Source of the DNA: Escherichia coli
GTDB taxonomy: Bacteria; Pseudomonadota; Gammaproteobacteria; Enterobacterales; Enterobacteriaceae
Reading direction: 5' to 3' (one strand)
Length of the DNA stretch: 64,000 nt
Assembly: GCF_036507355.1 (NCBI RefSeq)
Contig: NZ_AP027877.1
Positions 61,085 to 64,000 of this stretch are shown here, one piece after another. Within the stretch, counting starts at the first letter, position 1, and the number at the start of each line of letters is the position of its first letter. The notes beneath the pieces are model-generated. The model ran no database searches. It was not told the origin of the DNA and worked only from the letters and a program-made list of their open reading frames with translations. A program made the position numbers and the translations under genes.

Positions 61085-62041
61085 TTAAACCACCCGATCC
61101 AGCCCCAACATGCCGCGAGCCTGAATGAAACAGAGCAGCAACGTTCCCCATAAGGCCATCGTCAGGTAGGGGCTTATACCGAGAATATTGAAGCCGCTTT
61201 CAATAATTTGCAGAAGAAACAGCGCCAGCACCATACCAATTATCCGCCCGCTGCCGCCGTCCGGATTAACCCCGCCGAGTACTGCCGCGAGGATTGACAC
61301 CAGCAAGTACGATTCGCCATAAGAGGCCTTAGCCGAGTTGAGTTTCGACATCATCAAAAATGCCGCTACCGCACAAAGCAAGGCGGAAATGACATAAACC
61401 CAAATCAGCACCCGACGAGTGTTAATGCCGGAGTAAAGTGTTGCTCGTTCGTTAGACCCAATCAGGTAAATGGCTTTACCGAGCGGCGTTTTCTCCAGCA
61501 ATATCCATAGCCCCAGTGCCACTGCGGCAAACAACCACATCGGTAGCGGAATACCGAACCATTGCGCATGATTCAACCACAGCACCCATGAGGGATAATT
61601 GGCAATGGCGCTACCACCTGTCACCAGAATATTTATCCCTTTGAGCAACGTCATCATCCCAAGCGTTGCAAGAATTGGCGACACTCGAATACCAGCAATC
61701 AATACGCCGTTACATAAACCGATTATCACCGCCGCGCCAGCGCCCGCCAGTAACGTAGCGACAACCGTAGCAATACCCGGTGGATACTGAGTCGCCACCC
61801 ACGCCATCACAAGTGAACAGGCGTTAGCAGTGGCTATAATTGACAAGTTAATGCCACCGCAAAGCATGGTCACCGCCATAGCCAACGCCAGAATGCCCAG
61901 CACGGGCATTTGCGAAGCGACGGACTGGAAATTACTTATCGACCAGAAAATCTCCGGCATAGTAATGCTGAACGCGGCAACAGTTAGCACCAGCAGGCCG
62001 ATCAAGTAAAACTCAACGTTATTACGCCACGATTTTTTCAT
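61085..62041 (-). CDS. Sugar ABC transporter permease (RbsC/AraH-like), downstream copy
   Basis: About 318 aa from MKKSWRNNVEFYLIGLLVLTVAAFSITMPEIF...; polytopic; start codon overlaps the stop of the upstream permease gene. Confidence 0.8.
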   Translation of the reverse strand: MKKSWRNNVEFYLIGLLVLTVAAFSITMPEIFWSISNFQSVASQMPVLGILALAMAVTMLCGGINLSIIATANACSLVMAWVATQYPPGIATVVATLLAGAGAAVIIGLCNGVLIAGIRVSPILATLGMMTLLKGINILVTGGSAIANYPSWVLWLNHAQWFGIPLPMWLFAAVALGLWILLEKTPLGKAIYLIGSNERATLYSGINTRRVLIWVYVISALLCAVAAFLMMSKLNSAKASYGESYLLVSILAAVLGGVNPDGGSGRIIGMVLALFLLQIIESGFNILGISPYLTMALWGTLLLCFIQARGMLGLDRVV

Positions 62042-63009
62042 AGCAGACTCCGGTTCTGATGCTGACTCCACGCCGTGGCACTAATGCTGGCAACGATGAT
62101 GATGCCGGTGATCAATGTTTGCCAGTAAGACGAGACTCCCAATAAATTTAGCCCGTTTTGCATCACTGCCAACAACACCACGCCGAGCAAAGTACCGGTT
62201 AACGTGCCGCGCCCGCCGAGCAAACTAGTGCCGCCAAGCACCACCGCAGCCAGTACTGTCAGCTCATAACCCAGAAGAGAATCGGGGGCGACAGTCATCA
62301 CCGTCCACGACTGCACTACACCCGCAGCGCCAGACATCAATCCCATATAGCCATAGACGAAAAGTTGCAGTTTCAGCACGCTAAAGCCGATGCGACTGGC
62401 TGATTCGCGGTTCCCGCCAAGGGCATAAATTTTGCGCCCTACACTGGTGAAATTCATGATAAACGCTGTTAGCAGCACCACCGTAATCATGGCGATCAGC
62501 GGCAAACCAAGGCCATAGTCATAGCCATCAGCATCGGTGTACTTGAACAACATAACCCCCTGCTCAAACCACGGCGGAAAGTCGTACAGCCACACACCTT
62601 TACTCAGCCATAACAGCAGGCCATAGAAAATATTCAGCGTCGAGATAGTGATGATGATAGAAGGCACCCGTAGGCGATTAACCAGTAAGGCGTTAATTAA
62701 GCCAAGTAAAATGCCGATGCAGCCCGCCAGTGCAAACGCGACAGCGAAGTTGCCACCAATTTTTTGCAGCAACAGCACCATGCCGTATTGCGCAATGATG
62801 GTCATTGCTGGAAACGAAATATCAATTCCACCGGAAATCAACACCACAAACAAACCACAGGCGAGAATAGTCAACATGGCATAGTTATTGGCGAGATCGT
62901 ACAAATTACCGAATGTCAGAAACTCGTCGCTGCGCCAGGCAAGGCCAACAAACAGCACCACAATCAGTAATGCCAGCCAGAATTCATGGCTTTTTTTCAG
63001 TTCAGCCAT
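62038..63009 (-). CDS. Sugar ABC transporter permease (RbsC/AraH-like), upstream copy
   Basis: 323-aa polytopic ORF MAELKKSHEFWLALLIVVLFVGLAWRSDEFLTFGNLYDLANNYAMLTILACGLFVVLISGGIDISFPAMT... Confidence 0.8.
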   Translation of the reverse strand: MAELKKSHEFWLALLIVVLFVGLAWRSDEFLTFGNLYDLANNYAMLTILACGLFVVLISGGIDISFPAMTIIAQYGMVLLLQKIGGNFAVAFALAGCIGILLGLINALLVNRLRVPSIIITISTLNIFYGLLLWLSKGVWLYDFPPWFEQGVMLFKYTDADGYDYGLGLPLIAMITVVLLTAFIMNFTSVGRKIYALGGNRESASRIGFSVLKLQLFVYGYMGLMSGAAGVVQSWTVMTVAPDSLLGYELTVLAAVVLGGTSLLGGRGTLTGTLLGVVLLAVMQNGLNLLGVSSYWQTLITGIIIVASISATAWSQHQNRSLL

Positions 63010-64000
63010 TTACCACCTCCGCAATCCTGGCCTGAGAACTGCTGTCAGGCAGGAAGCTATGGGTGATCTGACCTTTTTGCATTACCAAAATCCGGTGGCT
63101 TTGATACCACGCTTCTTCAATTTCATCGCAGATCATCAATACCGCAATGCCATGAGCCGCCAGATCGCTGATAATGCCGTATATTCCTGCTTTGTTGGCG
63201 ATATCAACACCGACTGTCGGGCTATCGAGAATCAACAGTCGTGGCCCAATCGCCAGCCATTTGGCGATCGATACTCGCTGCGCGTTACCACCAGAAAGCG
63301 TATTCACCGGGAGATGAGGATCAGAGACTTTGATGGTCAATGCCTTGATTAGCCTGTCCACCAGGTCACGCACTTTAGTTTCACTCAGAAAGCCGAAGCG
63401 ATCTTTTACCTTGTGAAAAACAGTGCTAATGATGTTGTCTTCAATAGATTGCGCCATCACCAAACCGCGCGACATGCGATCTTCCGAAACATAACCAATA
63501 CCGTGGCGGATGGCGTCCTGGTTACTATGCAGTGTAACCGGCTGGCCGTTGATGAGGATCTCGCCAGCATCCGGTCGGGTCATACCAAACAGACTCAGAC
63601 ATAATTCCGTGCGCCCCGCACCAAGCAGGCCAACAATCGATACCACTTCGCCCGCTTCCACCCGCAAGTTAATATTTAGATATTCCCCATGACGACTTAA
63701 ATTACGCACCTCCAGCACCGGGGTGCTGGATTTTCCCTGCCACAACTCTCGCACCTGATATTCAAACTCCTGGCCGGTCATCAGAAAACTGAGTTGTTTT
63801 GTGGTCATCTCTGCAGCCGGAAAAGTCCCGACCAGCTCACCATCTTTCAGCACTGAAATACGGTCGGAAACTTCCATCACTTCTTCCAGACGATGACTGA
63901 CGAAGACCACGCAGATCCCGCGTTCACGCAATTGATGCACCACCTGTAATAACCCTTGCACTTCCTGATGGGTCAGCGAAGCGGTTGGTTCATCCATCAC
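63002..64000 (-). CDS. Sugar ABC transporter ATP-binding protein (tandem-ATPase type), 5' end beyond the window
   Basis: Partial ORF containing a second nucleotide-binding domain (GLLGAGRTELCLSLFG, LSGGNAQRVSIAKWLA, LILDSPTVGVD), typical of RbsA/MglA/AraG-type ATPases. Confidence 0.8.
   Translation of the reverse strand: MMDEPTASLTHQEVQGLLQVVHQLRERGICVVFVSHRLEEVMEVSDRISVLKDGELVGTFPAAEMTTKQLSFLMTGQEFEYQVRELWQGKSSTPVLEVRNLSRHGEYLNINLRVEAGEVVSIVGLLGAGRTELCLSLFGMTRPDAGEILINGQPVTLHSNQDAIRHGIGYVSEDRMSRGLVMAQSIEDNIISTVFHKVKDRFGFLSETKVRDLVDRLIKALTIKVSDPHLPVNTLSGGNAQRVSIAKWLAIGPRLLILDSPTVGVDIANKAGIYGIISDLAAHGIAVLMICDEIEEAWYQSHRILVMQKGQITHSFLPDSSSQARIAEVVNG

Follow-up and report, generated by a model that had tools for sequence, protein, structure and literature searches.

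The window, that is, the whole stretch of 64,000 nucleotides of Escherichia coli DNA (contig NZ_AP027877.1) that was analysed, ends in three genes on the minus strand that lie beside yahK. The latter (59949..60998, minus strand) encodes an NADPH-dependent aldehyde reductase and belongs to the conserved flank, outside the variable segment. A spacer of 86 bp (60999..61084) separates it from a distal permease gene (61085..62041, minus strand) encoding 318 aa from its ATG; the 328-aa form with a GTG start in the list of open reading frames is an upstream extension of it. A proximal permease gene follows (62038..63009, minus strand; 323 aa) and then the 3′ 999 bp of a gene for a tandem-domain ABC ATPase (63002..64000, minus strand), corresponding to residues 163–494 of 494 and open to the window edge; this gene extends past the window end to about position 64486. 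The junction between both permease genes is ATGA, with a 4-bp overlap, and that between the proximal permease and ATPase genes is ATGGCTGA, with an 8-bp overlap. The minus-strand arrangement of two permease genes and a tandem ATPase gene with overlapping ends given by the initial annotation was thus reproduced. A regulator gene was not found in the segment beside yahK.

The distal permease matched the Pfam family BPD_transp_2 (PF02653) at 8.4e-32, and its top NCBIfam matches were RbsC (160 bits) and LsrD (145 bits), both far under the cutoffs. For the proximal permease these were AraH (158 bits) and RbsC (151 bits), also under cutoff. The first protein is identical to WP_000750339.1 of strain L26 and the second is equal to WP_000818900.1 except for one residue. 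The ATPase fragment (332 aa) is identical to the C-terminal part of WP_072686387.1, has no internal stops and contains an LSGGNA signature (aa 397) as well as the second Walker A motif (aa 286); the first of the two Walker A motifs of the 494-aa protein (aa 37) lies outside the window. At full length this ATPase scored 423 bits against AraG (cutoff 689) and 385 bits against LsrA (cutoff 586). As a whole, the three proteins matched RbsC/AraH/LsrD-type and AraG/XylG/LsrA-type models at 1e-42 to 1e-126, in agreement with the sugar-type importer resembling Rbs, Lsr and Ara systems that had been proposed for these genes.

The window genes belong to the Aau sugar importer already described in publications on E. 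coli (O-island 17, Z0415–Z0419), so the locus was already known. The segment shares 99.4% nucleotide identity over 100% coverage with the Sakai and EDL933 loci and, by gene order, the distal and proximal permease genes are the orthologues of Z0419 and Z0418, respectively. In the matching genomes yahK is followed by the two permease genes, the ATPase gene, aauA for the binding protein, a small gene with an ASCH domain and yahJ. The aau operon is made up of four genes, encoding the AauA binding protein, the tandem ATPase and the two permeases. The binding protein and the segment boundary, both expected beyond the window, were indeed placed past position 64000 in these genomes; for the source strain, the first ATPase domain, AauA and the promoter, all beyond the window, are predicted from the 2213 colinear genomes. 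In the closest genome the binding protein matched the structure PDB 9I1M at 1.8e-213 with one substitution, and the D-ribulose pocket (K37, W43, E118, H167, E196 and S223 in 9I1M numbering) is kept in a colinear genome (L001). The homologues of this protein also include structures of ribose and rhamnose binding proteins and of LsrB. The system is a CUT2-type monosaccharide ABC importer: both nucleotide-binding domains of its ATPase lie on a single chain of ~500 aa, its permeases are of the BPD_transp_2 family and its periplasmic binding protein is of type I. None of the five locus proteins reached an NCBIfam equivalog cutoff, the ASCH protein having no NCBIfam match and being placed by Pfam only. 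Sequence models by themselves therefore cannot assign the substrate, and the function of Aau is that established in the published work (PMC11127945, PMC12307932).

Aau was described as the "accessory L-arabinose uptake" system of EHEC, Z0415–Z0419, and is required for EHEC gut fitness (PMC11127945, PMC12307932). Its expression was shown experimentally to be AraC-dependent and induced by L-arabinose only (PMC11127945). The ligand in the AauA crystal structure 9I1M is D-ribulose, which is preferred about 200-fold over L-arabinose (PMC12307932). According to these studies, L-arabinose-bound AraC switches on the operon, periplasmic AauA captures alpha-D-ribulose at micromolar affinity and L-arabinose only weakly, and the sugar is imported by the heterodimeric permease together with the two-domain ATPase. 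D-ribulose is then phosphorylated by AraB and enters the pentose phosphate pathway. A consensus scan of the aauD–yahK spacer (60999..61084) found neither terminator-like nor promoter-like sites; since no terminator-like site is present there, read-through from aau into yahK may occur.

In MG1655 the order is yahI-yahJ-yahK and the transporter is absent, as the initial annotation had stated for K-12, and comparison of the yahK-yahJ region bore out that the transporter occupies the place of the K-12 yahJ beside yahK. In the matching genomes yahJ is still present, 5.3 kb farther. The K-12 gene order given by that annotation would have been wrong if K-12 or most E. coli had the same genes at this position; K-12 does not, and the aau locus was found in 2213 of 5426 complete E. 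coli genomes (41%). A K-12-type spacer of 376 bp is common to 2803 of the same 5426 genomes. Nine plasmid-borne matches were also obtained in the genome search.

The K-12-type spacer is not devoid of aau sequences. In aau-negative E. coli, K-12 and Nissle among them, the distal permease gene survives as its final 72 bp (61085..61156, minus strand), which places the left deletion breakpoint at 61156/61157. The K-12 copy of this remnant is identical at 72 of 72 positions and still encodes ALWGTLLLCFIQARGMLGLDRVV with its stop codon, with in-frame stop codons just upstream, and the same C-terminus of the distal permease is conserved in orthologues from Klebsiella, Franconibacter and Mangrovibacter. 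In Nissle the remnant is annotated by RefSeq as an N-terminally truncated pseudogene fragment. The 3′ ends of the permease and ASCH genes are both retained in the K-12 and Nissle spacers, with identical breakpoints, and in K-12 the two remnants have diverged promoter-distal DNA between them. Because the "empty" K-12 site holds in-frame 3′ fragments of two segment genes, insertion cannot explain it and a simple insertion model was rejected. On its sequence, the K-12 spacer is a deletion scar and not an empty insertion site. We infer that K-12-type genomes lost aau through a single old deletion, whose haplotype is now present in about half of E. coli.

In addition, the locus was found in an Escherichia lineage of about 90% nucleotide identity (L032), in the order pdeL, ASCH remnant, aauABCD and yahK. 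Identity is 91–93% for the aau genes of this lineage and 87–92% for the flanking genes. Owing to the deletion scar in K-12 and to the presence of aau beside yahK in this ~10%-divergent lineage, aau looks like an ancestral locus of Escherichia between yahK and yahJ that was later lost, and not like an EHEC-specific acquisition. In a pattern-based scan with one genome per species, in which 80 loci were listed, none of the other named Escherichia species representatives had AauA among the matches listed. The outgroup polarity thus comes from L032 only, and an early acquisition of aau in the E. coli stem lineage is possible.

The published work words the evolution of the locus differently, as a recent horizontal island specific to EHEC or other pathogens that would have been inserted into a K-12-like yahK-yahJ junction. 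It is listed as O-island 17 and termed horizontally acquired, is overrepresented in phylogroups B1 and E, and its presence correlates with that of LEE (PMC11127945). The slightly low G+C content of the segment (48.4% vs. 52% in the surroundings), the absence of the locus from other Escherichia species representatives among the matches listed and its patchy presence across genera, with the closest relatives among those matches in Klebsiella and Franconibacter at 92%, go in the same direction. However, there is no clean empty site, as the site retains the two gene fragments, no integrase, transposase or tRNA gene was found in the annotated segment, and its composition is only mildly atypical. 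Moreover, the divergence of aau at the same position in L032 is like that of its flanks, and many of the 41% of complete genomes that carry the locus are non-EHEC. A recent island is for these reasons unlikely, and the evolutionary reading shifts from an island gain to an ancestral locus followed by an old deletion.

The regulation of aau was considered in the orthologous cassettes of other genera. araC adjoins the cassette in Providencia, Limnobaculum, Budvicia, Leminorella, Pasteurellaceae and Vibrio, and ara catabolic genes are also adjacent in several of the araC-linked cassettes. Five of these regulators (from Providencia, Limnobaculum, Actinobacillus, Rodentibacter and Vibrio) scored 343–501 bits against the AraC equivalog model, all above its cutoff of 208. 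The ara-linked groups, beside araC and araBAD, belong to Morganellaceae, Budviciaceae, Pasteurellaceae and Vibrio. Across the 76 grouped orthologues the six ligand-contacting residues do not vary (76/76). The motif TCCATA-N4-TAGC, with at most one mismatch, occurred 48 times in 32 kb upstream of aauA orthologues vs. 86 times in the other 3.1 Mb, an enrichment that comes from related, non-independent loci. The Klebsiella site, TAGTATTATTATCCATA-TTTA-TAGCTGAATATTACCTG, is closely like araI, TAGCATTTTTATCCATA-AGAT-TAGCGGATCCTACCTGA, and the proposed AraC operator candidate for aau is TGCCCGTTTTGTCCATA-TTTA-TAACCATATTTTTAATA. In E. coli the candidate araI-like operator would start 149 bp upstream of the aauA ATG and appears weaker than that of Klebsiella, with two mismatches in the first half-site and three in the second. 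Neither the ASCH gene nor yahK nor yahJ was found travelling with the cassette in other genera, except for one distant ASCH match, which in Serratia lies about 6 kb past the cassette end.

AraC control looks ancient because orthologous cassettes adjoin true araC and araBAD genes, with an araI-like operator and the same six contact residues. Judged from these sequences, it would have been inherited from an ancient ara-linked transporter family and not invented in EHEC. All these results lead us to the reading, with a probability of about 0.9 for its parts taken jointly, that the three genes form the downstream portion of the aau operon, that this ancestral locus was lost from K-12-type genomes and that its AraC control was inherited. 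To a wider statement we give slightly better than even odds: that O-island 17 is ancestral and was deleted, that the link between AraC and a ribulose-type transporter is ancient in Gammaproteobacteria, with no "hijack" in EHEC, and that the ligands may include L-ribulose. The physiological ligands of the family may include a ketopentose of the arabinose pathway such as L-ribulose, and control of ribulose-type transporters by AraC seems both widespread and old.

The same ara linkage could indicate that Aau is primarily a high-affinity importer of L-arabinose or D-ribose, redundant with AraFGH or RbsABC. Besides the orthologues linked to araBAD, the AraC dependence and exclusive induction by L-arabinose, the best matches of the permeases and the ATPase to AraH, AraG and RbsC, and the partial restoration of the growth of an araE mutant on L-arabinose by Aau overexpression (PMC11127945) would fit such a function. 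However, isothermal titration gave AauA a Kd of 1.98 μM for D-ribulose vs. 598 μM for L-arabinose, and the melting shift was of 16 degrees with D-ribulose and of only 2 degrees with either L-arabinose or D-ribose (PMC12307932). The growth of the aau deletion mutant on L-arabinose was also unimpaired (PMC11127945). In addition, the binding protein scored 46 bits against RbsB, with a cutoff of 337, and we consider it quite improbable that either aldopentose is the main substrate.

RefSeq gives the binding protein WP_001042107.1 the product name "autoinducer 2 ABC transporter substrate-binding protein". The AI-2-contacting residues of LsrB are reportedly K35, D116, D166, Q167, P220 and A222. That Aau would be an autoinducer-2 (Lsr-type) importer, as this name and the detectable homology of the binding protein to LsrB structures (E about 1e-21 to 1e-24) would have it, was rejected and is effectively refuted, since the Lsr cutoffs are missed (LsrB, 111 of 384 bits; LsrD, 145 of 500; LsrC, 118 of 388; LsrA, 385 of 586) and the contact residues are mostly lost, one of the six (Lys) being kept in the HMMER alignment to LsrB 5gta and the others being E, Q, H, F and S; lsrK, lsrR, lsrF and lsrG were not found among the neighbours (yahK, the ASCH gene and yahJ), and the crystal ligand of AauA is D-ribulose (PMC12307932). 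The misleading name is spread across many genome annotations.

Comparison with known systems places LsrACDB in the same CUT2-type importer class as Aau, with a binding protein of the same fold family. The K-12 systems AraFGH and RbsABC share with Aau the tandem ATPase and the BPD_transp_2 permeases, and AraFGH is also AraC-controlled. However, they have one permease gene instead of two distinct ones, the Aau proteins score well under the equivalog cutoffs of their models and the ligand preference differs. The D-ribulose utilisation locus of Citrobacter rodentium, Rbl (PMC12307932), has the same four-gene transporter architecture as Aau, and Rbl-type binding-protein homologues, at about 60% identity, have the same six ligand-contacting residues as AauA. 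In Rbl-type loci the gene directly downstream encodes an FGGY pentulose kinase (695 bits, cutoff 409) and the araI-like motif is absent, whereas no dedicated FGGY D-ribulokinase was found adjacent to the transporter in the E. coli segment and aau, unlike Rbl, relies on AraB and AraC. The Aau of EDL933 and Sakai is the same locus, with the same gene order and the same position on the yahK side, and the window contains its two permeases and two-thirds of its ATPase. In TUV93-0 a premature stop at codon 259 splits the ATPase gene into Z0416 and Z0417 (PMC11127945), whereas residues 163–494 have no internal stop in the window, so the region of codon 259 is intact. Since the locus is a published determinant of EHEC fitness in gut colonisation, the window only marks its strain as a carrier of aau whose ATPase is apparently intact.

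Directly after yahK (59949-60998) the window carries three co-directional genes on the minus strand: a distal permease of 318 aa (61085-62041), a second permease of 323 aa (62038-63009) and an ATPase gene whose 5' part lies past the window edge and whose end is at 63002. The initial annotation had described overlapping, reverse-strand transporter genes at this place, and both the ORF table and direct inspection bore it out, the gene junctions being the overlaps ATGA and ATGGCTGA. The K-12 order that it had given was also right, as MG1655 has yahI-yahJ-yahK with nothing between. 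The ATPase part in the window corresponds to residues 163-494 of a two-domain protein of 494 aa and has no internal stops; unlike the TUV93-0 ATPase, which has a premature stop at codon 259 (PMC11127945), this allele is open across that region. The distal permease matched Pfam BPD_transp_2, and the three proteins gave strong matches to RbsC/AraH/LsrD or AraG/XylG/LsrA models, each below the curated equivalog cutoff. The G+C content of the segment is only mildly low (48.4% vs. 52% locally). A consensus scan of the 86-bp spacer between aau and yahK (60999-61084) identified no terminator-like or promoter-like site, and arabinose-induced read-through into yahK might be possible in aau-positive strains.

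The segment showed 99.4% identity with the Sakai and EDL933 loci, and a literature search with the EDL933 locus tags led to the O-island 17 genes Z0415-Z0419, named Aau (PMC11127945). Because of this identity, the genes of the segment correspond to an already known and well characterised system; the observation is confirmed, and the interpretation as a sugar-type ABC transporter is supported. Aau is induced by L-arabinose only, AraC being required for induction, is needed to persist in the streptomycin-treated mouse gut and is mainly carried by phylogroups B1 and E (PMC11127945). The binding protein AauA has a Kd of 1.98 uM for D-ribulose vs. 598 uM for L-arabinose, residues K37, W43, E118, H167, E196 and S223 contact alpha-D-ribulose in its structure, and AraB phosphorylates D-ribulose after import (PMC12307932). 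The binding protein of the colinear genome is an almost perfect match to PDB 9I1M and matched the Klebsiella structure 3D02 at 3.6e-188.

RefSeq names this protein 'autoinducer 2 ABC transporter substrate-binding protein'. Nevertheless, it reached 111 bits with the LsrB model (cutoff 384) and 137 bits with that of the rhamnose binding protein RhaS (cutoff 342). Pereira et al. reportedly described in 2009 six residues of LsrB contacting AI-2; with this residue list, only one of the six positions is kept in the alignment to LsrB. In addition, no lsr accessory genes were found around aau in the neighbourhood of strain L26. The LsrB score, the lost contacts, the lack of lsr genes there and D-ribulose as crystal ligand led us to reject an AI-2 function, and the name is misleading and has spread across genome annotations.

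In the colinear locus of strain L26 (L001; window = L001 + 43999) yahK is followed by both permeases, the 494-aa ATPase, a periplasmic binding protein of 327 aa, an ASCH-domain gene coding for 136 aa, and then yahJ, yahI and the genes beyond. The binding protein gene (L001 20536-21519, window ~64535-65518) and the ASCH gene between aauA and yahJ (L001 21773-22183; Pfam PF04266, 1.3e-22) are outside the window. We infer from colinear genomes that the source strain would also have the parts lying past the window edge, namely the first domain of the ATPase and aauA with its promoter. According to the L26 annotation, there is no gene for a regulator, a kinase or mobility in the segment. Among the loci examined, linkage of the ASCH gene to aau was confined to Escherichia. 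Comparison with L26 also revealed a 1-bp deletion in a C-run (C5 to C4, near 57,909-57,913) of yahN (57546-58216, plus strand), the frameshift giving a product of 131 aa vs. 223 aa; yahN may be a genuine pseudogene here, or the homopolymer may have been misread in sequencing. The codB-prpE spacer (49305-49550) contains 2.6 copies of a 94-bp tandem repeat and that of L26 about three more, so the copy number of this array differs among strains.

By megablast, the 2916-bp segment was present at >=80% coverage in 2213 of 5426 complete E. coli genomes. The yahJ-yahK spacer of K-12 and Nissle is 376 bp long, colinear and with identical breakpoints, and was found at >=80% coverage in 2803 genomes; intact loci and K-12-type spacers thus account for 5016 of the 5426. 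The spacer contains the 3'-terminal 72 bp of the distal permease gene, which match the window at 72/72 positions and still encode ALWGTLLLCFIQARGMLGLDRVV and the stop codon, with in-frame stops just upstream; RefSeq annotates this remnant in Nissle as a truncated pseudogene. Its other two pieces are ~60 bp of diverged DNA, loosely aligned to the sequence upstream of the aauA promoter, and 72 bp including the 3' end of the ASCH gene, encoding EMDIIFEEYALIDVV and a stop. K-12-type genomes lack both aau and the ASCH gene, of which ~50 bp of the 3' end are left. As the permease C-terminus is kept in the Klebsiella, Franconibacter and Mangrovibacter orthologues, the 72 bp from the permease are part of the cassette rather than of the E. 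coli flank. Genomes without aau therefore have no empty site, in contrast with the horizontal acquisition described for this locus (PMC11127945, PMC12307932).

Among the remaining genomes at least one larger rearrangement with an IS element was found. In strain PCP06173 (L004 4093-5352) the permease remnant is interrupted after 36 bp by IS903B, with betT following where yahJ would be; therefore, the yahK-proximal junction has been struck more than once. K-12 belongs to phylogroup A and Nissle to B2, and since both have a common scar the deletion haplotype is either old or dispersed by recombination. A possible alternative is that aau was acquired early in the stem lineage, because a pattern-based scan of one genome per species, capped at 80 loci, listed AauA in no other named Escherichia species. 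The sole other Escherichia record among the loci listed was 'E. coli' SCPM-O-B-8794 (L032 1-20981), with ~90% nucleotide identity to E. coli and probably a separate species under this label. Its order is pdeL, an abutting 100-bp ASCH remnant, aauABCD and yahK, the entire yahB-yahJ block being absent. The aau genes (91-93% identity) and the flanking prpR, yahK, yahN and pdeL (87-92%) have diverged alike, as predicted by vertical co-inheritance. On balance, these data suggest that aau was ancestral at the yahK-yahJ site and was deleted later.

The four-gene cassette is kept in Enterobacterales, Pasteurellaceae, Vibrio and Aeromonas (binding-protein identity 58-92%), and the E. coli neighbour genes do not accompany it there. 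The six ligand-contacting residues are invariant in all 76 grouped orthologues. In Limnobaculum, Budvicia and Leminorella araC is directly upstream of the cassette with araBAD close by; in Providencia it is just downstream and divergent from araBAD. Pasteurellaceae have an araC homologue directly upstream, sometimes with araB, araA or araD near, and at two Vibrio loci one lies inside the 10-kb flanks. All five regulators tested (Providencia, Limnobaculum, Actinobacillus, Rodentibacter and Vibrio) exceeded the AraC equivalog cutoff of 208 (343-501 bits), and with 759 bits (cutoff 428) the kinase of Chelonobacter is a true ribulokinase. A candidate araI-like half-site pair, TGCCCGTTTTGTCCATA-TTTA-TAACCATATTTTTAATA, starts 149 bp before the ATG of E. 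coli aauA; the Klebsiella candidate is TAGTATTATTATCCATA-TTTA-TAGCTGAATATTACCTG, and authentic araI, as read from K-12, TAGCATTTTTATCCATA-AGAT-TAGCGGATCCTACCTGA. With up to one mismatch, the core TCCATA-N4-TAGC occurred 48 times in 32 kb upstream of orthologues vs. 86 in the other 3.1 Mb of both strands, an enrichment which comes from mutually related loci and is indicative, with no formal probability. The core was present in 43 of 80 listed loci and in none of the ~60%-identity group. We infer that AraC coupling to a ribulose-type transporter may be ancient, E. coli retaining a detached copy, which would soften the EHEC-specific 'hijack' description in the literature. L-ribulose might be a further ligand; it appears in the published work solely as a non-inducer of Rbl, the D-ribulose locus of Citrobacter rodentium, and not as a test ligand of AauA (PMC12307932). 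Finally, in the ~60%-identity group an FGGY pentulose kinase (695 bits vs. 409) is encoded downstream instead, which agrees with the published Rbl arrangement.
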